64,000 bases of DNA from an uncultured Candidatus Binatia bacterium (lineage in GTDB: Bacteria > Desulfobacterota > Binatia > UBA9968 > JAJDTQ01). The stretch spans positions 7,840 through 71,839 of the forward strand of contig CBDCAF010000018.1 of the NCBI GenBank assembly GCA_965213675.1. The letters run 5' to 3'. The position numbers and the translations under genes are program-made. Under the pieces are notes generated by a model that saw only the letters and a program-made list of their open reading frames with translations, was not told where the DNA came from and searched no databases. Numbering within the stretch: position 1 is the stretch's first letter; each line of letters begins with the position of its first letter. This document shows, piece by piece, positions 33,056 to 53,461 of this stretch.

Positions 33056-33916
33056 CTACACGCTGTGGTTGTCGCTCTTGTTGTGGACGGTCTCGTTGAG
33101 AGAACCCGTGCGGTAGCCCTGAAGGTCGATGCTGACGTAGGTGAACCCGGCGTCCTTGAAACGTTGGACGATCCCTTCTCGCACGTCCGGCAGCAGCAGC
33201 TTGTCGAACTCGTCCGGCGCCACCTCGATGCGCGCCAGCGCGTCATGGTAGCGCACCCGGTACACCCGGAAACCCAGTTCGCGCAGCACGCGCTCGCAGC
33301 GGTTCACCTGGGTGAGCTTCTCCGGGGTGATGGCGGTGCCGTAGGGAAAACGGCTGGACAGGCACGCCAGCGCGGGCTTGTCCCATACCGGGAGCCCCAT
33401 GCGCCGGGCGGCCTCGCGGATGTCGGCCTTGGTGAAACCCAACTCGTCCAGGGGCGAGCGCACGCCCCGCTCGCGCGCGGCCTTCCGGCCGGGGCGGTGG
33501 TCGCCGCGGTCGTCCAGGTTGAAGCCGTCCAGCACGTGCGGCATGCCCAAGGTCGCGGCCTCGTCGATGGCCTTGCCGTAAAGCTCGGTCTTGCAGAAAT
33601 AGCAGCGGTTGACGGGGTTGGCGGCGTAGCGCGGGTCGTCCAGTTCGTAGGTGTCGATGAGCAGGTGGCGGGCGCCGATGCTCTCGGCCAAGCCGCGGGC
33701 GTCGGCCCCCTCCTCGGGCGCGAGGCTGGGAGAGACTGCGGTGAGCGCCAGAGCGTTGTCGCCGAGAGCATCCACGGCCTCGGCGAGCAGGTAGCCGGAA
33801 TCGACCCCGCCCGAGAAGCAGACCACGGCCTGTCCCATCTCTCTCAGCAGCGCCTGAAGTTCGGCCACCTTTCGCGCCAGTTCGGCGTCCTCAAAAGGGT
33901 CATTCCCTGGCCCCAC
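33056..33916 (-). CDS. larE: LarE-like ATP-dependent sulfur transferase (PP-loop ATP pyrophosphatase)
   Basis: PP-loop VCFSGGVDSG, then CYFCK and LACLSSRFPYG. GTG start 33916 was chosen so the REP repeats stay intergenic. An alternative ATG is at 34015. Confidence 0.8.
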   Translation of the reverse strand: MGPGNDPFEDAELARKVAELQALLREMGQAVVCFSGGVDSGYLLAEAVDALGDNALALTAVSPSLAPEEGADARGLAESIGARHLLIDTYELDDPRYAANPVNRCYFCKTELYGKAIDEAATLGMPHVLDGFNLDDRGDHRPGRKAARERGVRSPLDELGFTKADIREAARRMGLPVWDKPALACLSSRFPYGTAITPEKLTQVNRCERVLRELGFRVYRVRYHDALARIEVAPDEFDKLLLPDVREGIVQRFKDAGFTYVSIDLQGYRTGSLNETVHNKSDNHSV

Positions 33917-33938
33917 TCCGTGAACCCCGCGCACCCTA

Positions 33939-33986
33939 CCGTCATTCACCCGCACCCCACCGTCGTTCCCGCGAAGGCGGGAATCC
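33939..33986. repeat. REP-B repeat
   Basis: ccgtcattcacccgcaccccaccgtcgttcccgcgaaggcgggaatcc. Confidence 0.75.
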
Positions 33987-34041
33987 AGGCGGGGTAGTGT
34001 GGGGGAGCCCTTCATCGACGTCGTGACCGATGTCAGCGCTC

Positions 34042-34605
34042 TTACGGCGTGGACTTCACCTTCGGCCGCTCCAGCAGCGTGTTGCACCAGCGTCTCACGT
34101 TGGGCAGGTCCTCGGTGATGGACGTCCGGTAGGCGTCCTGCCGGGTGAAGAACGGCACATACGTGATGTCCGCCAGCGAGTAGTCGTCGACGATGTAGTC
34201 GCGCCCGGCCATGCGCTCTTCCAGCGTCTCCAGGTGCTGCCGCAGCCGCTTCTTGTTCTTCTCCACCTCGTGGTCGTGGCGGATGTTGCCGGCCGCGGTC
34301 TGAAGCCGGGTGTTGCAGAAGTCGATCCAGATGCGTACCTCGGCGCGCTTGGCCAGATCCTTCGGCATCAACGGCACGTCGGGAAACTTCTCGTCCAGGT
34401 ACTCGTTGACGACCGCGGATTCGTAGATCACCGCGTCCCCGTCCACCAGCACCGGCACCTTGCCGTAGGGGTTCAGGGTGACCAGCTCTTCCGACTTGTT
34501 CCTCAGGTCGCACTCGACCAGTTCGTAAGGGATGTCTTTCTCTGCCAGGACAAGCCTTGTCCTGTGGGCATACGGTCAAGGACCGTAGGACAGTAGTCGC
34601 AACAT
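34042..34605 (-). CDS. Omega/Grx-like glutathione S-transferase with in-frame TGA (codon 10) at the catalytic-Cys position; candidate selenoprotein, otherwise a pseudogene
   Basis: Own translation: MLRLLSYGP-TGA-PYAHRTRLVLAEKDIPYELVECDLRNKSEELVTLNPYGKVPVLVDGDAVIYES... runs in one frame to the stop at 34042. GGAGGA RBS lies upstream of ATG 34605. Confidence 0.7.
34546..34564 (-). promoter_or_regulatory. SECIS-like hairpin 11 nt downstream of the in-frame UGA
   Basis: RNA CAGGACA-AGGCU-UGUCCUG read on the minus strand. The UGA is at 34578-34576. Confidence 0.5.
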
Positions 34606-34654
34606 GTCTTCCTCCTTCGAAGTTTGCGCTTCCACGTGGGCGCGGAAAAGACTT

Positions 34655-35041
34655 CTACGCGATGATCGGTTCCTTCACCGGAATGTGGCTGGGCCTCCGC
34701 GGCACCCGCGTGCGCGGCTTGCCGTCCACCTGGGAGTTGCCCGCGCCGAACAGCAGCAGACGGTCCCCGCCCGTGTTGCAGAGCTGGTACGGCTGGCCCG
34801 ACCTCAGCAGGATGGTGTCGTGGGGGTTCAGGACGAACTCATCCTCCGGCGTCCGCACCGTGCACTGGCCCTCGAGGACCATGAAGACATGGTCGTCGTT
34901 CTCGTGGTAGTGCATGTCGTCCTGCATGTTCGCTTCGCAGTTGATGGTCCAGAAATAGGTCAGGTCCGTGCGCCACAACGAAAGATGGCGGATGTCCGGG
35001 TTGGCCTTGGCCTCCGTGATGGGGTTTTTCACTTCGTACAT
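34655..35041 (-). CDS. Small cupin-domain protein
   Basis: Contains MHYHENDDHVFMVLEG...PYQLCNTG. Confidence 0.7.
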   Translation of the reverse strand: MYEVKNPITEAKANPDIRHLSLWRTDLTYFWTINCEANMQDDMHYHENDDHVFMVLEGQCTVRTPEDEFVLNPHDTILLRSGQPYQLCNTGGDRLLLFGAGNSQVDGKPRTRVPRRPSHIPVKEPIIA

Positions 35042-35077
35042 GCGCGTGTCCTCCCTCTGTCTCGAGTCGAATAGCCG

Positions 35078-35326
35078 CTATTTCGGCGCCACCAGCTTGC
35101 CGTGGGTGCCGTCGCAGTACGGCCGCGTCTTCGACCGCCAGCACGCGCAAATGGCCATGGTCCGGGGCTCGTCCACCGTGATTTCCCGGGGCGTGATGGA
35201 CGTCACCTTGTGCGACCCGTCGCAGAACGGAAAGTTCCGGGTCCGCCCGCACATGCAGTAGAAGCGGCTCTTGGATTCCTGCCGGACGATCACCGGCTCG
35301 ATCAGATCATCGTATGCCAGGCCCAT
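35078..35326 (-). CDS. CDGSH-type iron-sulfur domain protein (two CDGSH motifs)
   Basis: Contains CMCGRTRNFPFCDGSH and CACWRSKTRPYCDGTH. Confidence 0.85.
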   Translation of the reverse strand: MGLAYDDLIEPVIVRQESKSRFYCMCGRTRNFPFCDGSHKVTSITPREITVDEPRTMAICACWRSKTRPYCDGTHGKLVAPK

Positions 35327-36892: not shown

Positions 36893-39800
36893 TTGGCCAA
36901 TTCTCGCAACTTCAGCGAATATGATAAAGCAACTACAGACTTGCCCGCACCGCTTGAGAGAACGCCCTTGGAAGACGCCGCCCGACTATTACCCGAACGT
37001 TTCCCCGACGTCGGGGAACTCGTCGAAGTGCGTTCACGCCGCTGGCTGGTGGAGGCGGTGGAGTCGGAATCGGGCCGCGTCAGCCTTGCCTGCGCGGACG
37101 ACGACGCCCAAGGGCAGACCCTGGAGGTCTACTGGGAATTCGAGATCGACCGGCGCATCCTTGAGGTGGAGGCGTGGAACGCCATCGGCGCCAAGGGGTT
37201 CGACGCGCCCCGCCACTTCAGCGCGTTCCTCCACACGTTGCGCTGGAACTGCGTCACCGCCACCGACCCGAATCTCTTCCAGTCGCCGTTCCGGGCCGGC
37301 ATCAAGATCGACGCCTACCAGATGGAGCCGCTCCGCAAGGCGCTTCGGCTGCCACGGGTCAATCTGTTCATCGCGGACGATACCGGCCTCGGCAAGACCA
37401 TTGAGGCCGGTCTCATCGCGCGGGAATTGTTGCTACGCAAGAAGGTCAAGACGATGGTCGTCGCCGCGCCGGCCTCCGTGCTGGAGCAGTGGAAGGCCGA
37501 GATGGAAGAGCGTTTCGGTCTGCTGTTCGTGATCCTCGACCGCGCTTACCTCACGCAGGTCCGGCAGGAACGCGGCTTCGGCGTGAATCCCTGGCGTACC
37601 CATAGCAGGTTCCTGGTGTCCCACAACCTGCTCATTGACCCGACCTACGCCGATCCGATGCGTGAGTGGCTCGGGGCTCTTCTGCCCGGCAGCCTGCTCA
37701 TCCTCGACGAGGCCCACCATGCCGCGCCGTCGAGCGGCGGGCGTTACGGCATCGAGTCGAAGTTCACCCGGGCGGTCCGTGATGTTGGCGGCCGGTTCGA
37801 ACACCGTCTGTTTCTGTCCGCCACTCCCCACAACGGCCACTCCAACAGCTTCTCCACGCTGCTTGAGCTGCTTGATCCGTACCGTTTTACCCGCGGCGTG
37901 CCGGTGCGGGGAAAGAAGGACCTCGACGAGGTCATGGTCCGGCGCATCAAGGAAGACATCCGCGAGGTGCAGGGCGGCTTCCCCAGACGGCACGTGGAGC
38001 CGGTTCGGATCGATGGCCTGCCGGACGACGCACCGGAACTCGTTTTGTCGAGGCTCCTTGACGAATATCGCGGCTTGCGGGAGCAGCGGCTGGCCGGCGC
38101 CAGGCCGCGAGCCCAGGCCATGGCCGGTTTGCTCGTGGTGGGGCTGCAACAGAAGCTCCTGTCATCCATCGAAGCGTTCGCCATCTCGCTCGCGCGGCAT
38201 CGCAGGACGATTGAGCGACTTTGGGCGCAAGACACTGAAGACGGTCAGAACGTCCCGGATACACGGGTTGAGACCGTGGCGACCGAACCATTTCTGAAAC
38301 TGTTCGCAAAACCGCCGGACGCGGACGACGAACGCGCGGAACAGACCGACGAAGAGAACGCGGCCGAGGAAGAGGCGCAGATCACGGCCATCAACGAGAC
38401 TGCCGAGCTAGGTACCCCCACGGATGAAGGAGCAAAGGCGGCTTGGGATAAGGAGCAGGCCCTCCTGACTCGTATGCACGAAGTCGCCGATGGCGCCCGC
38501 GGCCGCCCTGACGCCAAGACCCGCCGCCTGATCGACTGGATCTACGACAACCTCTGTCCCGACCGCCCGCGCTGGAACGAACGGCGGGTGCTGATCTTCA
38601 CCGAGAACGTGATCGGCACGAAACGGTACTTGCGCGAGATGCTGGAGCAGGCCATTGCCGGCACCGACTTCGCCGAGGAGCGCATCGAGACCATTGACGG
38701 CCAGACCGCCGGCGCCAGGCGCAAGGAGATTCAACGTCGCTTCAACGCCGATCCGGCCCACGATCCGTTACGCATCCTCATTGCCACAGACGCGGCGCGC
38801 GAGGGGCTGAACTTCCAGGCGCACTGCACCGACCTGTTCCACTTCGACCTGCCCTGGAACCCTGGCCGCATCGAACAGCGCAACGGCCGCATCGACCGCA
38901 AGCTGCAACCGGCCCCGGAGGTGCGCTGCCACTACTTCGTGCTGCCGCAGCGCGCCGAGGACCGGGTACTTGAAGTGCTGGTTCGGAAGACCGCCACCAT
39001 CAGGCAGCAGCTCGGCAGTCTCTCCAAAGTGATCGATGACGAGGTGGAGCGCCGGCTGCGCGAAGGCATCCGTCACGGAGACGTGGAGCGCATCGCGCGC
39101 GACATTGAGGCGGCCGATCTCGACCGTGAAAGGCGACGAGTAGCGGCCGAGGAACTGGAAGCCGCCCGCGAACGGCAGGACGACTTGAAGGGGCAGATCG
39201 AACGATGCCGCGGGCTGCTGGACCAGTCCCGCCGCTGGGTGCAGTTCGAGGCGCAACCCTTTCGCAACGCTCTGTCCTGTTCCCTGGAGATGCTGGGTGC
39301 GGAGCCGTTGAAGGAAACACGTACCGACGATGGCGGGGTGGTCTGGACGCTGCCGCCGCTGGCGGGCAAGGCGCGGGCGGATGCAAGTTGGACCGCCACA
39401 CTGGACACGTTGCGCGCGCCGCGCAAGACCGACCAGAAGCTCGCGGAATGGCGGCAGCAGGCGCCGATTCGTCCGGTGGTGTTCGAGGATGCGGGTGTGC
39501 TCACCGACGACACCGTGCATTTGCACCTGGAACAACGCATGGCGCAACGGCTGCTGGCGCGCTTTCGCTCCCAGGGCTTCGTCTACCATGACCTGTCCCG
39601 CGCCTGTCTCGTGCAGGCCGCGGACTCCGTCCCTCGGGTGATTCTGCTGGGGCGGCTGTGTCTCTTCGGACGCCATGCCGAGCGTCTGCACGAGGAGTTG
39701 ATCCCGGTGGCGGCCCGCTGGGTCGAGCCGTCGCGCCGCAACGGGCCGCTCAGGGCCTATGCCGAGGAGGCGGAAGCACGAACGCTGGAACGCCTGGAGA

Positions 39801-40234
39801 CGGCCTTGCAGAGCGCACGAGGCCCGAACGAGACGATTCACCGCAGGCTGCGCGACATTGCCGCTCAGGATATCGAAGACCTGCTGCCGCAACTCGAAGA
39901 CCGCGCCGAGGGTGTGGCCCGGAGCGCTGGGGACAGGCTTCGCGCACGTGGCGAAAGGGAGGGACAGCAGCTTCGGGAGACCCTGGAACGTCAGCGCCGG
40001 CGAGTGGAAACGGAACTCGGCAAGCACGAGGGCCGCGGAACCCAGCTCACGCTGGAGTTCAGTGAAGCCGAGAAGCGCCAGCTTCAGGCCGACATCGCGT
40101 CGTGGCGCGTGCGTCTGGACCGGTTCGACAAGGACCTTAAGACCGAACCGGCCCGGATCCGCGAGTTCTACGAAGTGCGGGCACAACGAGTCGAGCCCAT
40201 CGGCTTGGTGTACCTGTGGCCGGACACCGGTTGA
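36893..40234 (+). CDS. drmD: SNF2-family helicase, DISARM class 1 DrmD-like
   Basis: Contains DDTGLGKTIEAG, LILDEAHHAAP, LSATPHNG, IATDAAREGLNFQ, DLPWNPGRIEQRNGRIDR. TTG start, with no earlier in-frame start. Confidence 0.8.
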   Translation: MANSRNFSEYDKATTDLPAPLERTPLEDAARLLPERFPDVGELVEVRSRRWLVEAVESESGRVSLACADDDAQGQTLEVYWEFEIDRRILEVEAWNAIGAKGFDAPRHFSAFLHTLRWNCVTATDPNLFQSPFRAGIKIDAYQMEPLRKALRLPRVNLFIADDTGLGKTIEAGLIARELLLRKKVKTMVVAAPASVLEQWKAEMEERFGLLFVILDRAYLTQVRQERGFGVNPWRTHSRFLVSHNLLIDPTYADPMREWLGALLPGSLLILDEAHHAAPSSGGRYGIESKFTRAVRDVGGRFEHRLFLSATPHNGHSNSFSTLLELLDPYRFTRGVPVRGKKDLDEVMVRRIKEDIREVQGGFPRRHVEPVRIDGLPDDAPELVLSRLLDEYRGLREQRLAGARPRAQAMAGLLVVGLQQKLLSSIEAFAISLARHRRTIERLWAQDTEDGQNVPDTRVETVATEPFLKLFAKPPDADDERAEQTDEENAAEEEAQITAINETAELGTPTDEGAKAAWDKEQALLTRMHEVADGARGRPDAKTRRLIDWIYDNLCPDRPRWNERRVLIFTENVIGTKRYLREMLEQAIAGTDFAEERIETIDGQTAGARRKEIQRRFNADPAHDPLRILIATDAAREGLNFQAHCTDLFHFDLPWNPGRIEQRNGRIDRKLQPAPEVRCHYFVLPQRAEDRVLEVLVRKTATIRQQLGSLSKVIDDEVERRLREGIRHGDVERIARDIEAADLDRERRRVAAEELEAARERQDDLKGQIERCRGLLDQSRRWVQFEAQPFRNALSCSLEMLGAEPLKETRTDDGGVVWTLPPLAGKARADASWTATLDTLRAPRKTDQKLAEWRQQAPIRPVVFEDAGVLTDDTVHLHLEQRMAQRLLARFRSQGFVYHDLSRACLVQAADSVPRVILLGRLCLFGRHAERLHEELIPVAARWVEPSRRNGPLRAYAEEAEARTLERLETALQSARGPNETIHRRLRDIAAQDIEDLLPQLEDRAEGVARSAGDRLRARGEREGQQLRETLERQRRRVETELGKHEGRGTQLTLEFSEAEKRQLQADIASWRVRLDRFDKDLKTEPARIREFYEVRAQRVEPIGLVYLWPDTG

Positions 40235-40239
40235 GACCC

Positions 40240-43200
40240 ATGCCTGCGCCCGACCCACACACCCGCGCCCATCTCGAATGGCTCGGCTTCATCCAGCCGA
40301 ACGGCCTCGTGGTCTCCGCTCCGGCCCTGGTCAAGGCTGGGGCCATCCTCAACCGGCACGATGTCGAAGGGCAGGAGTTGCTGGACGCTTGGTTGAACCA
40401 ACGCGATGGATCGCCTGCGCGCCCTCGGGAACAGTGCCTCCAGGACTTCCGCGTATTCGCGAAGACCATCCTCGGCTGGGGTTTCTCGCCCAAGGGATAC
40501 GCGGGTACGGAGGAGACCCCTATCCCGGCGGCACTTAAGGTTCCTCTCCCCGACTACGGAGAGACGCTGCGTCCGGACTTCGCGGTGTGCGAGCGCGACC
40601 CGCAGGCCGGGGAATTGCCGTGGCAGTTGCTCGTGCAGGTGCTGGAAGAGGGTGAAGGCTTCGACAGGCCGACCGCCGGCGGACTGAAAACCTCTCCGCA
40701 GGATCGAATGGAGCGCCTCCTCCGCAGCACCGGAGTTCCTGCTGGTGTGCTCTTCAACGGCGCTGCGCTACGTCTCGTCTCGGCCCCGCGCGGCGAAAGC
40801 TCCGGCTGGATGGACTTTCGTTTGGCCGACATGGCCCAGACCGCGGGGCGGCCTCTGTGCGCGGCGTTGCGCCTTCTTTTGTGTGAGCAACGCCTGTTGA
40901 CAGGGCCGAAGGAACATCGCCTGGCGGCGCTGCTCGCCGACAGCCGCCGGTATCAGAACGAGGTCAGCGAGCGGCTTTCCGAGCAGGTCATGCACGCACT
41001 CTATGACCTCCTTCGAGGGTTCCAGGCGGCCCAGGACGAATCCCGCGGAGAGCTGCTGCGGGAACCGCTCTCCGCGGAAGGCGACCCCAACGACATCTAT
41101 CGCGGCCTTCTCGCCGTCATCCTCCGCCTCGTCTTTCTGCTCTACGCCGAGGAGCGCCGCATGCTTCCGGGCGGCGAGACCTTCATCCAGCACTATTCGG
41201 TTGGCGGCCTCTACCAGCGCCTGCGCGAGGAGGCGGCCTTGCACCCGGATACCATGGATCAGCGCTACGGCGCGTGGGCGCAGCTTCTCGTGCTGTTCCG
41301 CCTTATTCACGACGGGGCGGGTGGGCACAAGACCGGAGGCAGCGTCAGCCTTCCGGAACGCCGCGGCGTTTTGTTCAACCCGGATCGGTATCCGTTCCTC
41401 GAGGGCCGTCACAGCGGCGGCGGCCGGCAGATCACCGAGCGGGTCCAGCCGCCGCTGGTCTCCGACGGCGCCGTCTACCGGGTGCTGGAGAAGCTGGTAG
41501 TCCTCGACGGCGAGCGCATTTCCTACCGCACCCTGGACGTGGAACAGATCGGGTCCGTTTACGAGGTCATCATGGGCTTCCGTCTGGAGACCGCCACCGG
41601 CCGGTCCATGTCCGTCAAGTCCGCCAAGAAGCTTGGGGCGCCGAGCACCGTCGATCTCGACGAGTTGGCGAGACAGCCCGGCGAACGTCGTGGGAAATGG
41701 CTCCAGGACCGCGTGGACCGCACCCTCACCGACACCGTCAGGAAGGGACTGCGGGCAGCCGATACGGTGGATGACCTTCACTTGGCGCTGGACCGGGTGC
41801 TGGACAAGGACGCCACGCCGGACCTCGTCACTCCCGGCTCCCTGGTGCTGCAACCCAGTGATGAGCGCCGCCGCTCGGGCTCCAACTACACGCCGCGGGA
41901 ACTCACCGAACCGATTGTCCGCCACACTCTGGAGCCCCTGCTCAATCGGCTTCGCGGCGAGGATGGACAGGCACCGTCTCCCGCCCGGATTCTCGACCTC
42001 AAGATTTGCGATCCGGCCATGGGTTCCGGCGCCTTTCTGGTGGAAACCTGTCGCCAGCTCGCGGATGCGCTCACCGAGGCATGGCACAAGCACGATGAGA
42101 CGCCGGTAATCCCGCCTGACGAAGACGAGGGGATCCATGCCCGCCGTCTGGTCGCCCAGAAGTGCCTCTACGGCATCGACCGGAATCCCATGGCTGTGGA
42201 CCTGGCCAAGACCTCGCTGTGGCTCAGCACGTTGGCGCGGGACCACCCGCTCACCTTCCTGGACCACGCGTTCCGCCATGGCGACGCCCTCGTCGGATTG
42301 ACCCGGAAACAGGCCGAGGCGTTCCACTGGATCCCGGATAGACCTCCTGAAGAGGGTTTCGAGATCATGAGGGTGCGGGAACACATGACGGAGTTGGCCG
42401 CGCTGCGCCAGCGCATCAGGGACGCGGGCGAGGATGTCTCCGATCAAGAACTGCACGACATCTGGCAAGATGCGCGCGACGAGCTTGGCGCCGTCCGGCT
42501 CTACGGCGATCTGGCGCTGGCGGCGTTCTTCGCTGAAACCAAACGGGGGCCAAGGGAAGGGAAGAGGCGCGAATTCGCCGCAGCCGCCTGGGGTGGTCAG
42601 GCCGAGCGCTACCTGGGATGGATCGGGGACCAGCGCGGCAGCGACCCGCCGCTCGCTCCTTTCCACTGGGAAATCGAGTTCCCCGAGGTGTTCGAGCGCG
42701 AGAATCCGGGGTTCGACGCGTTCGTCGGGAACCCGCCGTTCGCCGGGAAAAATAGCGTCGTCGCTGGTAACGTCGTGGGTTATCCCGACTGGCTCAAGAC
42801 CGTCCACAGAGAGAGCCACGGCAACGCCGACCTTGTAGCGCACTTCTACCGGCGTGCGTTCAACCTCCTGCGTGAAGGGGGCGCGTTCGGTCTGATTGCC
42901 ACCAACACCATCGCCCAAGGCGATACCCGTTCCACCGGACTGCGCTGGATTTGCGAGAACAACGGCTCGATCTTCCGCGCCACCAAACGGGTCAAGTGGC
43001 CCGGCGACGCGGCCGTGGTGGTCAGCGTGCTGCACGTCGCCAAGGGCGAATTTGCAGGAACCAAGGTGCTCGACGGCAGGGATGTGGAGAACATCACCGC
43101 GTTCCTCTTCCACAAGGGCGGCCACGCCGACCCGGCGCGCCTCGAAGCGAACGCCGGCAAGAGCTTCCAGGGAAGCATCGTCCTCGGAATGGGCTTCACC

Positions 43201-45390
43201 TTTGACGACACGGACAAGAAGGGCGTCGCCAACCCGCTGTCGGAGATGCAGCGGCTGATCGAAGCAGACCCGCGCAACGGCGAGCGCATCTTCCCGTACA
43301 TCGGTGGCGAGGAGGTGAACACCAGCCCGACCCACGCCCATCACCGATACGTGATCAACTTTGAGGACTTTCCGTTGCGGAGGGAGGACCTGGGAAAGCA
43401 GTGGGCGGACGCGGGGGAAGACTTGCGCCGCACATGGCTGCGGCGCGGGGTGGTCCCGCTGGACTATCCGGAGCCGGTGGCAGCGGATTGGCCGGATTTG
43501 CTGGCGATTGTGGATGAGCGAGTGAGGCCGGAGCGAAGCAAGCTCACGAAGAATCCCATCGGTCGAAAGCGAGCGGAGTTCTGGTGGCGTTACGGCTCGA
43601 CGGCAAACGAACTCTACGCCGCCAGCGCCAGTCAGCCTCGAGTTTTGGTGATTTCGAGATACGGACAAGTTGCTGCATTCACGTTCTTGCCCGCCGGCGC
43701 TGTCTATAGCGATTCATGCATCATATTCCCGGTCGACACCTATGCCGCCCTGTGCGTCCTCCAGTCCCGCCCCCACGAGATCTGGGTGCGCTTCTTTGGC
43801 TCGTCGATGAAGGACGACCTCCGCTACACGCCATCCGACTGCTTCGAGACTTTCGCTTTTCCTGATGATTGGGCAACGGCCACGGCGCTGGAGGCCGCAG
43901 GCAAGGCGTATTTTGAGCACCGAGTGACGCTGATGCTCTGTAACGGTGAGGGTCTGACCAGAACCTTAAACCGCTTTCATGACCCCTACGATGGCAATCC
44001 GAATATCATCCGTCTCCGAGAACTCCACGCCGCCATGGACCGCGCCGTCCTCGACGCCTACGGCTGGACCGACATCCCCACCGACTGTGATTTCCTCCTC
44101 GACTACGAAATCGACGAGGCTACTTGGGGCGTGAAGAAAAAGCCGTACCGCTATCGCTGGCCCGACAAAATTTGCGACGAAGTCCTTGCTCGCCTTCTCG
44201 CCCTCAATGTTGAGCGTTCCGAAGAGGAAGCCCGTGCACGGCTGGTGCAGAAGCCGGTCCGAAAGAAACGCCATCGCGTCCTGATGGTGGCAGAACAACC
44301 TCCTCTCTGGGATCGTCCAATGACTGACCAGACTCCACAGCGGTTCACGCCGTTGGTGAAGCGCTCTCGTCCCAAGCCTTCGACGATCTATCCGGTTCTC
44401 TGGAAATTTGCGTGTGAGCGCCAGCGGGTCTATCTACGGCGCGTCGCAGGCGACCCAAGCCCGTGGACTACGGACACTGTGCTGTCAGAATACAAGTTCA
44501 CGAATGCCTTCAGAGCCGCTGACAGGGTGAGTCAGTACCTGATTCAGTTGATCTATTCTGATGCTAAGGCCAGCGGCGCCAACGTGTTTCTGAGAGCCCT
44601 TTTATTCAAGGTCTTCAACAAGATCGAGACGTGGGACAGGGTCGTTAACGGACTCGGCATGCCTGTCGCTCACGAGTTCGACTACGCGGCGTGCGACGAT
44701 TTGCTTGTCAATCTTCGTCGGCAGGGGGCGCCGATTTACTCCGCCGCTTACATCATGCCATCGGGAGGACGAGTCGGGATGCCGAAGCACCGGATGCATC
44801 TCGAACTGATTCGCAGAATGCTTGATGAACGCCTTCCGGAGAAGCTGCAGGAGTCGAAGTCGCTGGCTGAAGCCTACGAGATGGTTCTTTTGTATCCCAC
44901 GTTGGGACCCTTTCTCGCTTTCCAGTACGTTATCGACCTAAATTATTCGACCCTGATGAACCACTCGGAACAGAGATTCGTGGTTGCCGGCCCCGGCGCC
45001 TTGGATGGACTGTCCAAGTGCTTCGAGTCGCTTGGGGAGTATGATCCGGCCGACGCCATCCTATGGTTGTCCGACATCCAAGCGGACGAGTTCGCGCGGT
45101 ATGGACTCGAATTCGGGGGTCTATGGGGACGCCCGCTTCAGCCGATCGATGTCCAGAATCTGTTCTGTGAGGTCTCGAAGTACACTCGGGTGACACATCC
45201 AGAGATAAGAGGCCTGACCAAGCGTAAACGCATCAAGCAAAGATTTGCGATGACAGGGCCGCTCGCCAAGCCCTTCTTCCCGCCCAAATGGGGCTTGAAT
45301 CAACGAATTGACGAGTGGCTCCCGCGCCGAACGGGTGCAACTCTCGAACAACGCGAGCTTTTCTTCCCAACCCCAGCCAGGCCTACGTGA
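40240..45390 (+). CDS. drmMI: N6-adenine DNA methyltransferase (Eco57I/type IIG-like), DISARM DrmMI-like, fused to an extra C-terminal domain of about 356 aa (from 44320)
   Basis: SAM motif ICDPAMGSGAFLVE and catalytic FVGNPPFAGKN. ATG lies 5 nt after the drmD stop. The C-terminal part has no methylase motifs: LWKFACERQRVYLRR...PWTTDTVLSEYKFTNAFRAADRVSQYL. Confidence 0.8.
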   Translation: MPAPDPHTRAHLEWLGFIQPNGLVVSAPALVKAGAILNRHDVEGQELLDAWLNQRDGSPARPREQCLQDFRVFAKTILGWGFSPKGYAGTEETPIPAALKVPLPDYGETLRPDFAVCERDPQAGELPWQLLVQVLEEGEGFDRPTAGGLKTSPQDRMERLLRSTGVPAGVLFNGAALRLVSAPRGESSGWMDFRLADMAQTAGRPLCAALRLLLCEQRLLTGPKEHRLAALLADSRRYQNEVSERLSEQVMHALYDLLRGFQAAQDESRGELLREPLSAEGDPNDIYRGLLAVILRLVFLLYAEERRMLPGGETFIQHYSVGGLYQRLREEAALHPDTMDQRYGAWAQLLVLFRLIHDGAGGHKTGGSVSLPERRGVLFNPDRYPFLEGRHSGGGRQITERVQPPLVSDGAVYRVLEKLVVLDGERISYRTLDVEQIGSVYEVIMGFRLETATGRSMSVKSAKKLGAPSTVDLDELARQPGERRGKWLQDRVDRTLTDTVRKGLRAADTVDDLHLALDRVLDKDATPDLVTPGSLVLQPSDERRRSGSNYTPRELTEPIVRHTLEPLLNRLRGEDGQAPSPARILDLKICDPAMGSGAFLVETCRQLADALTEAWHKHDETPVIPPDEDEGIHARRLVAQKCLYGIDRNPMAVDLAKTSLWLSTLARDHPLTFLDHAFRHGDALVGLTRKQAEAFHWIPDRPPEEGFEIMRVREHMTELAALRQRIRDAGEDVSDQELHDIWQDARDELGAVRLYGDLALAAFFAETKRGPREGKRREFAAAAWGGQAERYLGWIGDQRGSDPPLAPFHWEIEFPEVFERENPGFDAFVGNPPFAGKNSVVAGNVVGYPDWLKTVHRESHGNADLVAHFYRRAFNLLREGGAFGLIATNTIAQGDTRSTGLRWICENNGSIFRATKRVKWPGDAAVVVSVLHVAKGEFAGTKVLDGRDVENITAFLFHKGGHADPARLEANAGKSFQGSIVLGMGFTFDDTDKKGVANPLSEMQRLIEADPRNGERIFPYIGGEEVNTSPTHAHHRYVINFEDFPLRREDLGKQWADAGEDLRRTWLRRGVVPLDYPEPVAADWPDLLAIVDERVRPERSKLTKNPIGRKRAEFWWRYGSTANELYAASASQPRVLVISRYGQVAAFTFLPAGAVYSDSCIIFPVDTYAALCVLQSRPHEIWVRFFGSSMKDDLRYTPSDCFETFAFPDDWATATALEAAGKAYFEHRVTLMLCNGEGLTRTLNRFHDPYDGNPNIIRLRELHAAMDRAVLDAYGWTDIPTDCDFLLDYEIDEATWGVKKKPYRYRWPDKICDEVLARLLALNVERSEEEARARLVQKPVRKKRHRVLMVAEQPPLWDRPMTDQTPQRFTPLVKRSRPKPSTIYPVLWKFACERQRVYLRRVAGDPSPWTTDTVLSEYKFTNAFRAADRVSQYLIQLIYSDAKASGANVFLRALLFKVFNKIETWDRVVNGLGMPVAHEFDYAACDDLLVNLRRQGAPIYSAAYIMPSGGRVGMPKHRMHLELIRRMLDERLPEKLQESKSLAEAYEMVLLYPTLGPFLAFQYVIDLNYSTLMNHSEQRFVVAGPGALDGLSKCFESLGEYDPADAILWLSDIQADEFARYGLEFGGLWGRPLQPIDVQNLFCEVSKYTRVTHPEIRGLTKRKRIKQRFAMTGPLAKPFFPPKWGLNQRIDEWLPRRTGATLEQRELFFPTPARPT

Positions 45391-46462
45391 TTTCGCGGTA
45401 AAGAAGTTGCCGTTGATTCATGTCGAGCGTTACGTGTCCTCCCTCGTGTTCCCGGAGAGACCTGAACACGCGATATCCTTTGAGAATGGCGGTTTCCCAC
45501 CGCCATAGGGGAAGTTTGGCGACCTCGAAGCCTTGTATGAACTCCTTTACGGCCTTGAGCAGGTCATAGTCGACCTGGTCGATATTGTCGTAGTAGTTCA
45601 TTTTCTTTGCCCGGCTGAATACAATGGCGGATACGGCCTCTTCGATAATTCTCGCCCGCGCACCGTCCTCGTTCTCGTCCACCAGTGGATCGCTCTTCCG
45701 CTTGCACTTCAGTAGGTGTCTTATGACAGGTGACCATCCGAGGTACACGGCGTAAGCGAAATGGAAAACATCGTGAAACCGGTAGAAGTCAGGCTGTCCG
45801 ATATTGTCCGTCAGGCGATCCCCGAAGTTCAGTCCGTTACACCGGAGTATGGCCGTCACCTTGCTGTCCCGCTGGACTTGGCGAAAGTCGATATCGAGTT
45901 TACGTGGGAGCTGTTCCTCTTCCGGGAAGCCCTCATCGAAGAAAGGTGGGACGACATACCTCTCGGGCCATCGGCTCTGCGTCTTTTCCTGGTTCGTTCG
46001 CGCGGCCTCGTAGAGGTCGACGCCGGCGCCTTCCGCAACGTGAAATAGGGCGTCCCAGGTTGGCCCAAGCCTTCCGGAATCCATTCGGTCACGGTTTTGC
46101 ACTGCACTGAGTAATTCGCCCGCCGCAACCCCGAGGGCCACTCCATCCCCCAAGGGTCCTGGGCTTCGCCCCGATAGGGCCTGCGCTCGCTTGTTCGCAC
46201 GGTTCAGTGCCGACGGATCAAGAATGGCGGAGAGGCGCGCCAAGTACCAAAGACAATCTCCGATTTCTTCGACGAGCCGCTTACGGTATGCGGGATAGGC
46301 GTCGGTTTCACGTTGTTCCTTTTTCAATTCGGCGAGAACACTCCCCGCTTCACCGAAAAGACCTGCCGCAAGGATGAGGGCGTGGTTCGGTTTGTCGACG
46401 AGTTGATCCGTTCGCTTTGCAGACTTGGCGTATTCAATGAGCCAAGACATCGGCTTTCTCAT
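45383..46462 (-). CDS. MazG-like (all-alpha NTP pyrophosphohydrolase) domain protein with a C-terminal extension
   Basis: Contains LAAGLFGEAGSVLAELKKEQRE...RLVEEIGDCLWYLARLS. C-terminal region has FGDRLTDNIGQPDFYRFHDVFHFAYAVYLGWSPV. The stop overlaps the drmMI 3' end by 8 nt. Confidence 0.65.
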   Translation of the reverse strand: MRKPMSWLIEYAKSAKRTDQLVDKPNHALILAAGLFGEAGSVLAELKKEQRETDAYPAYRKRLVEEIGDCLWYLARLSAILDPSALNRANKRAQALSGRSPGPLGDGVALGVAAGELLSAVQNRDRMDSGRLGPTWDALFHVAEGAGVDLYEAARTNQEKTQSRWPERYVVPPFFDEGFPEEEQLPRKLDIDFRQVQRDSKVTAILRCNGLNFGDRLTDNIGQPDFYRFHDVFHFAYAVYLGWSPVIRHLLKCKRKSDPLVDENEDGARARIIEEAVSAIVFSRAKKMNYYDNIDQVDYDLLKAVKEFIQGFEVAKLPLWRWETAILKGYRVFRSLREHEGGHVTLDMNQRQLLYREIT

Positions 46463-47228
46463 GTGCTTCCTTCAAGGAACGGAGATCGTCGAGCAGTTTC
46501 TGTAGCCGTCTTTCCGACCCCTCAAGGGTGGCATAAGACGAGTGGACCACCAGGGTGCCCATGTCCTGCCCGGTCTCTTTGGCGACACAATCCTGGAGGC
46601 GGGCCAAACCAAGCAGGTTGCCTGGTACCTTGTATCGGTAGTCATGGCTCCGGTAGAATGCTGTCAGGTGGACCGCACCAACGAAGAGCTTGAACGAAAG
46701 GTGGGAGAGACAAGGATCGCCCCGTCGGCGTTTACCGTCTTTCACCGTGTTGTAGAGGGGCATGTCGTATTCCCCTTCGGCGACATTAATGTCGTAACGG
46801 GATTTCATGGTTCCCTTGGTCGAAAGCTCCTTCTTCATATTGTCTATCATCTCCTTCAAGGGGTTCATGTCCGTGCCATCGGCTGTCTTTCGTCGAACCA
46901 GCCGATAGGCGTAGGTGTCCCAAAGGATCTTTGGATGCCGCTTGATCGCCGGAAAGGTCTTATCGGGGTAGTCGTCGTAGACGCCCTTCAGTCCCCGCCT
47001 GCGATATTCTGACAAGGGAAAGATCGTTTCGGCCACCGAGTGAATCGGTAGTTGGTTTTCGCCCATAAAGAAGTCATCGAGTTTTTGCTCTGCGGCCTTG
47101 GGATAGCCCCTCTTTCCCGGTTCTCCGATCTCCAGCACAAGGTTCAGCATGGGACCGTTGGACAACAGGAACTCGGCGGCGTCAACCCAGGCATCCATCC
47201 AGGCAGCGGTCTGGATCAATTTTGCCAT
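46434..47228 (-). CDS. Thymidylate synthase-fold (ThyA / pyrimidine hydroxymethylase-like) protein
   Basis: GDPCLSHLSFKLFVGAVHLTAFYRSHDYRYKVPGNLLGLARLQDCVAKETG aligns with E. coli ThyA [56 protein letters not shown] RBS. Confidence 0.65.
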   Translation of the reverse strand: MAKLIQTAAWMDAWVDAAEFLLSNGPMLNLVLEIGEPGKRGYPKAAEQKLDDFFMGENQLPIHSVAETIFPLSEYRRRGLKGVYDDYPDKTFPAIKRHPKILWDTYAYRLVRRKTADGTDMNPLKEMIDNMKKELSTKGTMKSRYDINVAEGEYDMPLYNTVKDGKRRRGDPCLSHLSFKLFVGAVHLTAFYRSHDYRYKVPGNLLGLARLQDCVAKETGQDMGTLVVHSSYATLEGSERRLQKLLDDLRSLKEAHEKADVLAH

Positions 47229-47857
47229 CACGTCACCTCCTCCGTGAGGGCCAGTAGGTCGCGTAGATGACGGGCGAGGAAGGCGTCGTCGAGCCATGCA
47301 TGGCCGTTGTCACCCCATTCGGCACCCCAGCTATTCCTGACCAGGAAGCACCGCGATGTATCGGCGGTCCCCAAACCGACCGCTACGACTGCGTGAAGAC
47401 CTCGGATCGGGCCGTCGTGCGAGATTAACCAAAGAGGTGTAGGCGACAAAAAGTCGTCTGGTATGGAAATGCCGAGAACAGGCGTTTGCCCAGCGTTTAG
47501 CAGGGTTTCGACCTCATCTGCGGTAGCATCCTTCTGAACGCTCTTGCGTGGGTACAGTCGCACGCCTGCCGGTGGCATCCAGCCGAGAGGCAAACCGTCG
47601 GGATAGTAGGGGCAGTCTGCTTCCGCGGGCTGCCCAGGGTCTTGCAGGGCACGAGATGTCTCCAGGAATGCTGCGCCATCCGTCGGATTGTGGACCGACG
47701 CAAAGTAGTGGAGATACTCCGGCGAGAGCGCCATCTTGGAGCCGCGCACGCGTTCGTGTGCGCTCGTGCAGGCAAATGATAGACATGTGGGCCGGGCGCC
47801 CTGGTCCCGAATCGGGCCGAGGCTTTGCCGGTGGTCGACGAGAACGGTGATGTTCAT
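47228..47857 (-). CDS. Papain-family (C1) cysteine peptidase without a signal peptide
   Basis: Contains IRDQGARPTCLSFA (Gln/Cys), GLHAVVAVGLG (His), VRNSWGAEWGDNGHAWL (Asn). Its ATG overlaps the upstream stop (ATGA). Confidence 0.75.
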   Translation of the reverse strand: MNITVLVDHRQSLGPIRDQGARPTCLSFACTSAHERVRGSKMALSPEYLHYFASVHNPTDGAAFLETSRALQDPGQPAEADCPYYPDGLPLGWMPPAGVRLYPRKSVQKDATADEVETLLNAGQTPVLGISIPDDFLSPTPLWLISHDGPIRGLHAVVAVGLGTADTSRCFLVRNSWGAEWGDNGHAWLDDAFLARHLRDLLALTEEVT

Positions 47858-48837
47858 GCTGCATTTGCCAGTGCGTCGAGTTTGGCTTTTCTCGGGAAGC
47901 CGCCGGATTCCTTTCCATGAGCATCGATTTTGATCGCGATATGGTCGAGTGTCGCGCCGCTCCATGGGCGGGCGTGTTCAAAGGCGAGTCGATGTGTGCC
48001 AGGAGTATTGAAACGGACATACACGACACGGGCTGAAGGCCGTCCATAGACTCTGTCCGAGTCTGCTGTGTGCTCTGCGATGACCTCGGAGCTGGCTCCG
48101 GTGTCGATGAGCCTCCAGATGTAGCCGGCGGAAACGTTGTCCTCCAGATGGACTGCGAAGAGATCGTCGGGTCCGGCTTCGAGAAACGTGTCGGTGTCAC
48201 CACAGGTCAAAGCCCAGACGTCGGCCCAGGAGTTCGTGATCAGTTCTGCGGGTGCCAACGCCCGCTTCAGTTCCTTGACCGGCGTCGCTTCGAGTTGTTT
48301 GGCTTCCGCGCGCGTAAGGACCTTGGACGTTACCAAACCCCAGCATGCGGCTTGGTAGCTGATGCCCAAGCGAAGGGAAAGTTGGTAGATGTTGCGCGGT
48401 TGATGCAGCTCTTGCCTTTTCCAGCCATGGCGTGTGGCGGATTCTACCATGAGCTGTTTTGATGCCAGCAGCTCCGAGGCAAAGGTGTCAGCGGCCACCT
48501 CCTCAATCGCACGTGACCCTGAAGCGTGACGTCCCGCGAACCCAACGGTTTTATCCAGGCTTGACTCATGCCCCAGCACCCAGTGTCCGAGCTCGTGGGC
48601 CAGTGTAAACCGCTGAACGGCCAGTCCCATGCGACTCGTAACGATGATGCCTCGGGCACCCTTGCCAGCGGGAACAACGGCGCCCCAAAGATGATCCAGC
48701 GGCCGAAAGACGAGGGGGATGTCCCGCGTGGTGATCGCGCTGACAATGTCGAAACTGGTGCGGTCACTCTTGGCAGTTGAGGCGAGAATCTTGGCTGCTT
48801 CTCTGACGGCTCGCAAAGTCTCGTTACGTCTGTTCAT
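47854..48837 (-). CDS. ImmA/IrrE-type Zn metallopeptidase domain fused to a chagasin-like (I42) cysteine-peptidase inhibitor domain
   Basis: HEXXH motif LAHELGHWVLGH. The C-terminus FAVHLEDNVSAGYIWRL...PGTHRLAFEHARPWSGA matches chagasin NPTTGFAW...AGTHAVNLTYMRPWTGP. Confidence 0.75.
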   Translation of the reverse strand: MNRRNETLRAVREAAKILASTAKSDRTSFDIVSAITTRDIPLVFRPLDHLWGAVVPAGKGARGIIVTSRMGLAVQRFTLAHELGHWVLGHESSLDKTVGFAGRHASGSRAIEEVAADTFASELLASKQLMVESATRHGWKRQELHQPRNIYQLSLRLGISYQAACWGLVTSKVLTRAEAKQLEATPVKELKRALAPAELITNSWADVWALTCGDTDTFLEAGPDDLFAVHLEDNVSAGYIWRLIDTGASSEVIAEHTADSDRVYGRPSARVVYVRFNTPGTHRLAFEHARPWSGATLDHIAIKIDAHGKESGGFPRKAKLDALANAA

Positions 48838-49186
48838 CCGGTTTCCTCGACCGCAGGAATTGGGCGAAACGAAGAACCTCCTCCCGGTCGGTCACCGACA
48901 GTTCAGCGGTCGCCCGTGCTACCAGTCGTACCGACTCCGGCTCCGGGCTCTCCAGATCGGGTCCGGTGAGGCTCTCCATGTTGGTCTGATAGAGCGTGGC
49001 AAGGCGCTGAAGTTCCAATGCATCGACACGTCGCGCCCGATTCTCCATGAGTGAAATGGCGGATCTGGGAAGGCCGAGATGTGCGGCAACCTCTTCCTGG
49101 GTGAACCCGCAGTATTCCCGCGCCTCCTTTAGCCGCGTGCTCAGGGTGCCACGCTTGGCTGGCTGGCCGTGATTATCGTCGTTCAT
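48824..49186 (-). CDS. XRE-family helix-turn-helix transcriptional regulator
   Basis: Contains LKEAREYCGFTQEEVAAHLGLPRSAISLMENRARRV. 14-nt overlap with the ImmA-like gene. Confidence 0.85.
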   Translation of the reverse strand: MNDDNHGQPAKRGTLSTRLKEAREYCGFTQEEVAAHLGLPRSAISLMENRARRVDALELQRLATLYQTNMESLTGPDLESPEPESVRLVARATAELSVTDREEVLRFAQFLRSRKPDEQT

Positions 49187-49220
49187 TTACCACCTCCAAT
49201 CGGATGGGTTGGCGTCAAGC

Positions 49221-49616
49221 TCAGGAGATCTTTCTCATCATTTCGGGTACAAGATGATCGATCATGTCGTCGATGCTCTGGTAACCTCCAGGACGAATCA
49301 GCCGAACGTCAATGGGGCGACCTAGGTATCGCTGAAAAATCGGAGAGCTGCGGGCCACAGCCTTTGAGTCCAACTCAGGCATGGAATCCCACAGGTCGGA
49401 GTTGCTCCTGTCACTGACCATTCCGTTACGACTCGCTTCCACTTGTAAATCCCAGTCTCCCATCTCCTGACTCGCCCATTCCCTGAGTTCTTTTCTCAAG
49501 AGGGCCTCCTTGTTCGGCCCACGGCCCCTCACGGTCCTCAGCGTGGAGGTATCCCAGAACGAAAGGGGAATCTGGGATGAAGATTTAGGGGCTTGGGTAG
49601 GGATTTTGTGTTCCAT
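49221..49616 (-). CDS. Hypothetical protein; the C-terminal half resembles a phosphopantetheine carrier domain
   Basis: ELDSKAVARSSPIFQRYLGRPIDVRLI..GYQSIDDMIDHLV resembles the PCP/ACP pattern GxDS[LK]xAV...F...L...SI..L..HL. Located 34 nt downstream of the PPTase gene. Confidence 0.45.
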   Translation of the reverse strand: MEHKIPTQAPKSSSQIPLSFWDTSTLRTVRGRGPNKEALLRKELREWASQEMGDWDLQVEASRNGMVSDRSNSDLWDSMPELDSKAVARSSPIFQRYLGRPIDVRLIRPGGYQSIDDMIDHLVPEMMRKIS

Positions 49617-49650
49617 AACGGAACAAGATTAGCACCGTAATGTTCGAAAG

Positions 49651-50322
49651 TCAAACATTGCGTTGGGGCAATTCCGGCTGTTGTGACAACAAGGCAACTG
49701 AGCCCACCCAGGGACGGACGGCGGTGGTGCAGCAAACCTCTACAGCGATTCGGTCGAAATGAGCAACGCCGTTCATCATCCCTTGTGGCGCAACTTCCTT
49801 CCACGAGAGTCGTACGTTGTCGTAGCCGAATCGGACACCAAGAACAGGGTTCAAAGCCTTGAAAACGGCTTCCTTCACCGACAGTAGGATCACCGAGCCT
49901 GCAACACCCCAGTCCAGAGGCAACTCGTCGGACGCGATCAGTCCTTTGATTGACAGGAGTTCCCGACCGCGGTCCAGAGTCTCGATGTCGATGCCGACGG
50001 ACCTCACGTGACTGATCCGAGATAGCCCAGCCACAACTTTGGTGCCTTTATGGCTCACGCTCCCCGTGTAACCCGGTGGCCAGTCTCGGGCGCCGGAGGC
50101 GAGGTGCCCTGGCTCATTGGCAGACAGCCCAGCACTCTCCAGCAGATTGGTCAGACAGGTCGCCGTGGCCTTCCGTCTCGCGCGTTCCACGACGGGGACA
50201 CGTTCAGCGGACAGGACGTCCTGAGGGCCTGGTAGCCAATGCGCAAAAGAACCGCCCCTGATGCTCACTTCAGGTGCCAAGCGTTTGAGTTCGTCAACGA
50301 GGGGGTCACGTTGCAGATACAT
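49651..50322 (-). CDS. 4'-phosphopantetheinyl transferase (EntD/Sfp-type)
   Basis: Trimmed to MYLQRDPLVDEL. Contains WPPGYTGSVSHKG, VGIDIE, LSVKEAVFKAL. Confidence 0.75.
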   Translation of the reverse strand: MYLQRDPLVDELKRLAPEVSIRGGSFAHWLPGPQDVLSAERVPVVERARRKATATCLTNLLESAGLSANEPGHLASGARDWPPGYTGSVSHKGTKVVAGLSRISHVRSVGIDIETLDRGRELLSIKGLIASDELPLDWGVAGSVILLSVKEAVFKALNPVLGVRFGYDNVRLSWKEVAPQGMMNGVAHFDRIAVEVCCTTAVRPWVGSVALLSQQPELPQRNV

Positions 50323-50504
50323 GGTTTGATTTTTGCCGTTTACGGGTCTGCGTGGGGTCGATATCGGTTGGGTGCCGTGACGACGGCTGGCTTCTCGTTG
50401 TCTCCCGTGCCCCAGTTCTTCCGCTTGGGGCATATCGTCTCATCGGGTAACCTATTCTATAGGCCGCCGGTTCCGTGGGCGAGCCCCCATTGGACGCGAT
50501 CCTG

Positions 50505-50903
50505 ATGGAAGCCAAACTCAAGCACCTTGAATTTATCCAGGGCGTAGTGAATCGCCTAGCGTCTGACTCCTTCCGAATGAAGGGCTGGGCGGTGGCCTTG
50601 GTTGCTGCGTTCTTTGTCCTGTTGGCAAGGGAAGGACGGATCGAATTTGCCCCGATAGCCGTGGTTCCCGTGCTTGTCTTCTGGGGACTCGACGGCTACT
50701 TCCTGTGGCAGGAACGTCTCTTCCGTGCCCTGTACGATCACGTTCGGCGTGTGAGTGAAGTCGACATTGACTTCTCCATGGATGTCGGCCCGTTTCGAAT
50801 GGGCTGGCGACGAACTTGGTTGGGCGCAACATTCTCGAAAACGCTGATCTTCTTCTACGGCGCGTTGACCATCGCTGTCGGCTTGGTGACGTGCATCTAC
50901 TGA
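50505..50903 (+). CDS. Small integral membrane protein (about 3 TM helices)
   Basis: Contains GWAVALVAAFFVLLA, IAVVPVLVFWGLDGYFLW, LIFFYGALTIAVGLVTCIY. An alternative GTG start is at 50475. Confidence 0.6.
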   Translation: MEAKLKHLEFIQGVVNRLASDSFRMKGWAVALVAAFFVLLAREGRIEFAPIAVVPVLVFWGLDGYFLWQERLFRALYDHVRRVSEVDIDFSMDVGPFRMGWRRTWLGATFSKTLIFFYGALTIAVGLVTCIY

Positions 50904-50922
50904 CCGCGAGGAGACACATCCA

Positions 50923-52673: not shown

Positions 52674-52698
52674 GGGAAGGTGTCAAGGAGGCGTGTTC

Positions 52699-53049: not shown

Positions 53050-53058
53050 TTTCCTACA

Positions 53059-53298: not shown

Positions 53299-53461
53299 AC
53301 CAAGTGACTGCCGACCTGCGAAGGCGACTCGTCGGCACAAGAGTCGATGCATGTGGTGTATGGGTGGTCACCATCATCCTGCGGCCCAGGCCGTCGGGTT
53401 GATCCCATGCCTAGAGATCCACGCCAATTGACAACCGCGGACCATCCCGTACGTTCAAGGC

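Follow-up and report, generated by a model that had tools for sequence, protein, structure and literature searches.

The stretch of DNA analysed here (the window) comprises 64,000 nucleotides of contig CBDCAF010000018.1 from an uncultured Candidatus Binatia bacterium, and the gene in question lies on its minus strand, where a frame encoding a glutathione S-transferase (GST) carries a TGA as its tenth codon. An earlier note, made from the sequence without database searches, had proposed that this gene encodes a GST containing selenocysteine (Sec), that a hairpin resembling a selenocysteine insertion sequence (SECIS) follows the TGA, and that the gene starts at the ATG at 34605, with GGAGGA upstream, and continues in one frame to 34042. 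Direct reading bore out the start, the upstream GGAGGA and the frame, which runs as MLRLLSYGP-TGA-PYAHRTRLVLAEK... to the TAA at 34044..34042 and consists of 188 codons including the stop, with one internal stop. As the note had also remarked, the mechanical list of open reading frames (ORFs) contains only the 3' part of the gene (34042..34458), and all of its other statements at the level of the sequence were likewise correct. TGA is the stop codon of 26 of the 53 crude gene calls (ORFs with a high G+C content at third codon positions, GC3) in the window; being an ordinary stop elsewhere in the window, it has not been globally reassigned in the genetic code. The features of the locus are listed in Table 1.

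Table 1. Features of the putative seleno-GST gene, in window coordinates
Feature	Positions	Strand	Basis or remark
Full-length putative seleno-GST coding sequence, with UGA codon 10 read as Sec	34042..34605	-	187 codons + stop, single frame
ATG start codon	34603..34605	-	upstream ATG also in homologues
Shine-Dalgarno-like GGAGGA	34610..34615	-	direct sequence reading; 4 nt gap to ATG
In-frame UGA, predicted Sec codon (residue 10)	34576..34578	-	codon state in homologues; active-site alignments
Spacer from UGA to hairpin, 11 nt, CCGUAUGCCCA	34565..34575	-	length same in all loci; third positions free
SECIS-like hairpin	34546..34564	-	fold energy and nucleotide conservation
Hairpin 5' arm CAGGACA	34558..34564	-	
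Hairpin apical loop AGGCU	34553..34557	-	
Hairpin 3' arm UGUCCUG	34546..34552	-	
Possible 3-bp extension of the lower stem (34570..34568 with 34545..34543)	34543..34570	-	weakly supported
Gene-caller ORF, GTG start, 138 aa	34042..34458	-	ORF list; most of the thioredoxin-fold N-domain missing
TAA stop codon	34042..34044	-	sequence reading

For the domain search, the read-through product was modelled with Cys at the TGA codon. Pfam detected a complete N-terminal domain (GST_N_2, E 2.4e-21; GST_N_3, 9e-20; GST_N, 3.6e-18) and a complete C-terminal domain (GST_C, 6.5e-11, with GST_C_2 also above its cut-off), and the complete GST_N and GST_C domains were found in the read-through product only. 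The note's claim that the TGA stands at the position of the catalytic Cys was confirmed by alignment to human GSTO1, in which the TGA column corresponds to Cys32 (30% identity over 191 columns spanning both domains, E 1e-27); the GSTO1 chains in the PDB independently match over the same residues. In the structures of SspA-like GSTs from Burkholderia (4qq7 and 6v91, E ~5e-30), the residue aligned with the TGA is again a Cys, that of the C-P-F motif. In the AlphaFold2 model of P0039, a full-length homologue of the Cys form (mean pLDDT 81.6), the Cys lies in the loop between beta1 (2-6) and alpha1 (12-21), which is the canonical active-site position of the thioredoxin fold, and a Foldseek search with this model returned GSTs only, several of them with bound glutathione.

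The residues of the glutathione-binding G-site point in the same direction. P51, the Pro of a V-P pair, and E62 and S63, which form an E-S pair, are invariant in the homologue alignment and align with V-P and E-S of GSTO1; in solved GSTs the Pro of the V-P pair, which precedes beta3, is in the cis form, and the E-S pair marks the start of alpha3. We considered a resolving U...C pair and rejected it, since neither Cys32 nor Cys97 of the window protein is constant among the Sec forms. Given that there is no conserved second Cys, the U-P-Y-A site represents a monothiol-type arrangement. With respect to class, the window protein lacks the N-terminal extension of the omega type, and an assignment to the SspA equivalog was rejected because the NCBIfam SspA model, which has a cut-off of 314, scored 101.9 bits. 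The window GST does not reach the cut-off of any NCBIfam model, and none of these models captures such proteins as selenoproteins.

The state of the TGA codon was examined in the DNA of 80 loci from species-representative genomes, 79 of which include the N-terminus, and in a second set of 80 loci on metagenome contigs, for which the Cys form P0039 was the query and which were chosen to favour Cys forms. TGA was present in all 79 of the genome loci that include the N-terminus and in 78 of the 80 metagenome loci; of the other two, L084 carries TGT and the motif was not matched in L137. Altogether 161 homologous loci were sampled, spanning about 58-91% protein identity to the window protein, and 158 of them have TGA and three have a Cys codon (TGC in L082, TGT in L083 and L084). 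The frame is intact over 178 codons, counted from the TGA or TGY codon, in 152 of 160 loci. A TGA in a gene of this kind could also be the lesion of a pseudogene, a nonsense mutation peculiar to one strain, or an error of sequencing or assembly, and the bare stop codon is the one observation in favour of such an origin. However, the same TGA recurs across many samples and species, in 158 independent assemblies, which refutes that explanation, and the frames are intact and under purifying selection; the nonsense mutation confined to one strain, which the earlier note had named as an outcome that would count against it, was not what the homologues revealed, and the hairpin is conserved together with the TGA. 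The probability that we allow an origin by lesion or error is accordingly negligible.

The sequences on the two sides of the TGA were then compared. Nearly all homologous loci have an ATG 8-9 codons 5' of the TGA, and the intervening residues, M-[KL]-[LR]-L-[FYL]-S-[YSC]-x-x, are conserved while synonymous sites vary freely. Among 141 distinct Sec-form sequences, the Leu at -6 is present in every one (141/141) and is encoded by all six of its codons; downstream of the TGA, Pro +1 and Ala +3 are invariant with four codons each, and Ala +11 likewise uses four codons. Conservation of residues combined with free synonymous change on either side shows that the upstream and downstream regions are translated in the same frame, and the pattern reflects purifying selection at the protein level on both sides of the TGA.

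In public databases, this gene and well over 100 orthologues appear as fragments from which the N-terminus, and with it the active site, is missing. The orthologues in NCBI are entries of 108-164 aa, named 'glutathione S-transferase family' or 'glutathione binding-like' and truncated after the TGA (P0121-P0125, P0034 and P0081; for example MDE0354334.1, HEU4344449.1 and MBM4264582.1). One public protein, P0016 (136 aa), is the truncated form itself; it is identical to the window protein from residue 52 on with the exception of the start codon, and its gene is found on two public contigs with identical neighbours. Nearly all of the closest 120 of 1,865 protein homologues are 136-177 aa in length and lack the first 10-50 residues, with assorted starts after the TGA; the truncated lengths and the assorted starts just past the TGA are the mark of gene callers halting at a conserved in-frame stop. 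Two full-length homologues have Cys at the TGA codon, and a gene model from the Joint Genome Institute (JGI), P0026, gives W at this codon.

The truncated models (108-164 aa) are also the evidence that can be cited for a second explanation, in which translation terminates at the UGA after a leader of nine residues and a truncated GST-like protein is produced, as annotated, by re-initiation or from an independent start. However, no internal start is conserved, the callers and loci choosing residues 12, 14, 18, 20, 30, 50 and others. In the window, the first start after the TGA is the GTG at codon 50, the use of which would remove beta1, alpha1 and beta2 of the thioredoxin fold. Furthermore, PYAHRTR[LI]VLAEK, which lies between the TGA and the called starts, is the most conserved peptide of the protein, and the synonymous variation at its Pro +1, Ala +3 and Ala +11 shows that it is translated in this frame; the 8-9 codons upstream, for their part, match strand beta1 of GSTs. 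We therefore regard termination followed by a fresh start as highly improbable.

The earlier note had described a hairpin, CAGGACA-AGGCU-UGUCCUG, at 34564-34546, exactly 11 nt past the UGA and with G and U in its apical loop. The hairpin was found as described, with a stem of 7 bp, and the loop AGGCU is read directly from the sequence; RNAfold assigned the 19-mer a free energy of -9.2 kcal/mol. A lower-stem extension (Table 1) appears in the minimum free energy structure that RNAfold gives for the window sequence; 81% of its cells are paired, and its outer pair is present in 58 of 110 sequences. The codons that make up the hairpin, CAC AGG ACA AGG CTT GTC CTG, have a probability of ~1e-6 given the peptide HRTRLVL and the codon usage of the window, because AGG, ACA and CTT are each codons of about 5% usage in this GC-rich DNA. 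The hairpin motif was found nowhere else in the window or in 163 loci; apart from the GST site, only the reverse complement of that site matched.

The main test of the hairpin was not covariation; we relied instead on the suppression of synonymous variation and on the decay of the hairpin in Cys forms. All 158 Sec forms contain the core GGAC-N-AGG-M-U-Y-GUCC; their 19-nt hairpin shows 0-2 differences from the consensus, and its apical loop always contains GG. Among the 141 distinct Sec-form sequences, codons +5 to +10 are AGG (131/141), ACA (128/141), AGG (141/141), ATT or CTT, GTC (141/141) and CTG (124/141), and their synonymous entropy is 0-0.74 bits, compared with 1.4-2.2 bits for comparably conserved four- and six-fold degenerate codons in the flanks. 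The three Cys forms, in contrast, have 4, 5 and 7 differences from the hairpin consensus, all of them synonymous, and hairpin energies of -0.7 to -3.4 kcal/mol as opposed to a Sec-form mean of -8.6 kcal/mol. The hairpin is thus conserved wherever the TGA is present and decayed in the three homologues with TGC or TGT, in keeping with the earlier proposal. That the Cys forms keep the peptide yet lose the hairpin shows that the peptide does not force the RNA sequence, and that the constraint exists only with the TGA. Judged by the comparative data, both the TGA and the hairpin are far beyond chance. Across the homologues 95.6% of stem cells are paired, and compensatory changes were observed in L076 (A-U to G-C) and in L057 and L078 (basal C-G to U-A), with U-G also occurring in a few loci.

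The Cys-form genes (L082, 23-583; L084, 601-1158; L083, 1382-1942) are nested among Sec forms, and the nearest Sec relatives of P0039 are 89-91% identical to it. L082 and L084 represent one lineage and L083 another. The Cys forms look like the products of at least two independent and recent reversions from Sec to Cys, each followed by decay of the putative SECIS.

From the comparative evidence we estimate a probability of roughly 0.9 that 34605..34042 on the minus strand encodes a seleno-GST of 187 residues, with a predicted catalytic Sec inserted at the UGA by way of the SECIS hairpin and SelB. The candidate reading put forward in the earlier note is in this respect supported, and neither of the two outcomes that it had listed as refuting and that could be examined here was observed. 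Several results nevertheless weigh against it. The fold of the single sequence is not significant (a 66-nt segment gave z = -1.43, with 19 of 200 shuffles as stable), so the case for the hairpin rests on the comparative data. Covariation is scant, which is attributable to a nearly invariant stem: double changes occur at three pairs, and the score is 0.041, where some slid controls gave 0.030-0.050. No Rfam SECIS model matched, either in the whole window at the gathering thresholds or in 34480..34640 at E <= 10, and this is unsurprising because bacterial SECIS elements are heterogeneous; the sole Rfam hit was a match to a miRNA, which we rejected as spurious. Unlike the SECIS of E. coli fdhF, the window hairpin has no bulged U in its stem. 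Searches by tblastn with the SelA, SelB and SelD sequences of E. coli did not find selA, selB or selD in the 64-kb window and 81 related loci (~500 kb), and ARAGORN identified no tRNA gene in the window or in these 81 loci. Finally, no paper linking Binatota with selenocysteine was found among the Creative Commons-licensed articles of PMC and bioRxiv. The lack of sel genes at the locus is the result expected if they are unlinked to the GST gene, and the persistence of an in-frame TGA in about 158 assemblies, in the face of purifying selection, is a strong, if indirect, indication of a decoding system.

That no Sec genes were found in the window or the 81 related loci also bears on a third explanation, namely read-through of the UGA that does not involve Sec machinery: a near-cognate or suppressor tRNA would insert Trp, Cys, Gly or Arg, the hairpin would serve as a generic stimulator, and the product would be a GST without selenium. 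Such an explanation would further accommodate the C that invariably follows the UGA in TGA-form loci, as UGA-C is a leaky context for termination, and the W in the JGI call P0026, although the latter reflects how the gene caller works and is no evidence of decoding. However, the UGA coincides exactly with the position of the catalytic Cys, and wherever one of the 161 loci has a sense codon instead, that codon is TGC or TGT, which is the signature of Sec/Cys exchange and not of Trp or Gly. The position and size of the hairpin and its GG loop fit the descriptions of bacterial SECIS elements, and GSTs that have Sec at this position are already accepted as a selenoprotein family. We consider read-through without Sec to be improbable.

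If the seleno-GST reading is correct, the product would be a cytosolic-type glutathione transferase of 187 residues with its catalytic Sec at the end of beta1 and the start of alpha1. The 19-nt hairpin beginning 11 nt past the UGA would act as a bacterial SECIS, with the GGAC/GUCC stem and flanking pairs closing a small apical loop that always contains GG, and would recruit the complex of SelB, GTP and Sec-tRNA(Sec) to the ribosome, so that the UGA is read as Sec and not as a stop. The U-P-Y-A site suggests a monoselenol mechanism similar to that of omega-class or glutaredoxin-like Cys-GSTs: the selenolate, adjacent to the conserved glutathione site, would attack a glutathionylated or disulfide substrate, an Se-S mixed intermediate with glutathione would be formed, and a second glutathione molecule would regenerate the enzyme. 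The likely activities would be thiol transfer, deglutathionylation or reduction rather than classical conjugation. The frame, the domains, the active-site alignment, the conservation of the TGA and of the hairpin linked to it, and the ordinary use of TGA as a stop elsewhere are shown by the sequences; the role of SelB and tRNA(Sec), selenium incorporation and the enzymatic reaction are inferred.

The putative seleno-GST gene lies within the gene order CDGSH iron-sulfur protein, cupin, seleno-GST, LarE-type sulfur transferase (33056..35326 of the window, minus strand), in which the LarE-type neighbour matches TIGR00268 with 324 bits. This order was found only in the closest clade, L001-L023 (21-24 loci), and not in the more distant seleno-GST loci, and it therefore provides no functional clue for the family as a whole. 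No notable promoter or terminator was found at the locus. The intergenic region between the GST and LarE genes contains a G+C-rich inverted repeat, UUCCCGC-CUUC-GCGGGAA (33966..33983, minus strand), about 60 nt past the GST stop and without a T-run; the repeat falls inside the N-terminal extension of one public LarE call (319 aa, L081), the start of which has probably been called too far upstream.

The genome loci with the GST gene are mostly from metagenome-assembled genomes (MAGs) labelled Candidatus Binatia or 'Deltaproteobacteria', and a few are labelled Thermodesulfobacteriota, Chloroflexota, Verrucomicrobiota or Eisenbacteria. The same frozen SECIS-like sequence is carried by L033, L046, L049 and L061, which are from MAGs labelled Chloroflexota, Candidatus Udaeobacter, Eisenbacteria and Verrucomicrobiia; either the gene was transferred horizontally with its SECIS, or the binning or labelling is in error.

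A scan of the window for other genes with an in-frame TGA, which required high GC3 on both sides, yielded off-frame artefacts only; the filter is crude and misses the GST gene itself, as the part upstream of its TGA is only nine codons long. One TGA candidate, at 58340, was inspected and judged to be junk. On the plus strand, a gene for a protein of 1,724 aa (40216..45390) combines an Eco57I/MmeI-type N6-methyltransferase and an MmeI target-recognition domain with a C-terminal 5-hmdU DNA kinase helical domain (PF18723, E 8e-93), and it overlaps the end of the upstream gene for a SNF2/Helicase_C protein of 1,113 aa (36893..40234, plus strand). The region 36893..45390 looks like a restriction-modification or defence module that includes an unusual domain otherwise tied to thymidine hypermodification. 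Between these helicase and methyltransferase genes and a 1,266-aa ORF (53821..57621) there is a stretch, ~45800..53800, that contains short ORFs only and has a GC3 of 0.68-0.72, compared with 0.80-0.95 elsewhere in the window; this stretch may be foreign or mobile DNA.

Recoding of UGA through a SECIS and the exchange of Sec and Cys at redox sites are textbook knowledge, and the locus reveals no new mechanism. The novelty implied by the earlier note was too high, since a 2005 study of the Sargasso Sea already reported GST-like selenoproteins, four sequences in number, that have Sec at this position (Zhang, Fomenko and Gladyshev, PMC1088965). The Global Ocean Sampling (GOS) data of 2008 contained 12 Sec and 1,036 Cys homologues of GST (PMC2398784), and a 2026 review lists a 'GST-like protein, PF13409' and states that such families were found bioinformatically and are functionally uncharacterised (PMC13188914). 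The family and its Sec site are therefore already known, and the window GST is a well-supported further member. What is new is modest: a subfamily in which Sec is nearly fixed, hosts that are mostly Candidatus Binatia (phylum Binatota), and a systematic mis-annotation. We think it rather likely, although less so than the seleno-GST reading as such, that these proteins form a GST subfamily of their own, with about 34% identity to the marine proteins, effectively obligatory Sec, a frozen SECIS and at least two reversions, and that they would represent the first documented selenoprotein of Binatota.

If this holds, Sec decoding would be a trait of a Binatota lineage that includes sponge-associated members, and selenium dependence together with the capacity to decode Sec would be implied for Candidatus Binatia, a widespread uncultured group for which the articles searched report no use of selenium. 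To our knowledge, natural seleno-GSTs have never been characterised biochemically. The value of the present subfamily would thus lie in annotation and in an experimental handle on natural seleno-GSTs: a subfamily with nearly fixed Sec, with Cys revertants as natural controls, would be a good system in which to study the advantage of Sec over Cys in a thiol transferase.

The putative seleno-GST and its hairpin can be compared with several known systems. In the minimal element of E. coli fdhF the stem-loop begins 11 nt after the UGA. The window hairpin resembles the fdhF SECIS in that it is located within the coding sequence, directly 3' of the UGA, and consists of a short upper stem-loop with G and U in the loop, but it differs in sequence and has a 5-nt loop, A-G-G-M-U. 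Among solved structures, the best matches in both sequence and fold are the glutathione-binding SspA-like GSTs (4qq7 and 6v91 of Burkholderia and RegF of Neisseria, 4hoj; Foldseek E 1e-12), and the Burkholderia protein has Cys-Pro-Phe at the site equivalent to the window TGA. With the omega-class GSTs (human GSTO1 and GSTO2) and Cys-type GSTs in general, the window protein shares the position of the catalytic residue within the motif C/U-P-[FY]-A-x-R-x-R-L-V-L, and with GSTO1 in particular it has in common the Pro of V-P, the E-S residues of the G-site, and 30% identity over both domains. It differs from GSTO1 in having a predicted Sec in place of Cys, in being shorter (187 aa), and in lacking the N-terminal extension of about 20 residues, the alignment beginning at residue 24 of GSTO1.

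The closest counterparts in kind are the seleno-GSTs of the Sargasso Sea and GOS collections. The standard criteria for bacterial selenoprotein genes are pairing of Cys and Sec at the catalytic position, coding conservation around the UGA, and a stem-loop with a small, G-containing apical loop directly downstream (PMC1088965), and the stem-loop of the window GST, with its 7-bp stem and AGGCU loop 11 nt past the UGA, conforms to this description. In the supplement of the Sargasso Sea study, the sequence AACY01041448 reads MTSKYHLISFVT-U-PWVQRAVIVLRAK... (PMC1088965), and its annotated Sec aligns with the window TGA (34% identity over 70 residues, E 9e-16), a degree of identity that places the window GST in a different subfamily. 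The marine proteins and the window protein are alike in their GST fold, in a Sec at the end of beta1 before a Pro ('ISFVT-U-PWVQR' compared with 'LLSYGP-U-PYAHR'), in a UGA followed by CC with a stem-loop downstream, and in having been identified bioinformatically. They differ in that Sec forms are a tiny minority among the marine GST homologues, whereas Sec is predicted at 158 of the 161 sampled loci of the window subfamily, the hosts of which are mostly Candidatus Binatia or 'Deltaproteobacteria' MAGs.

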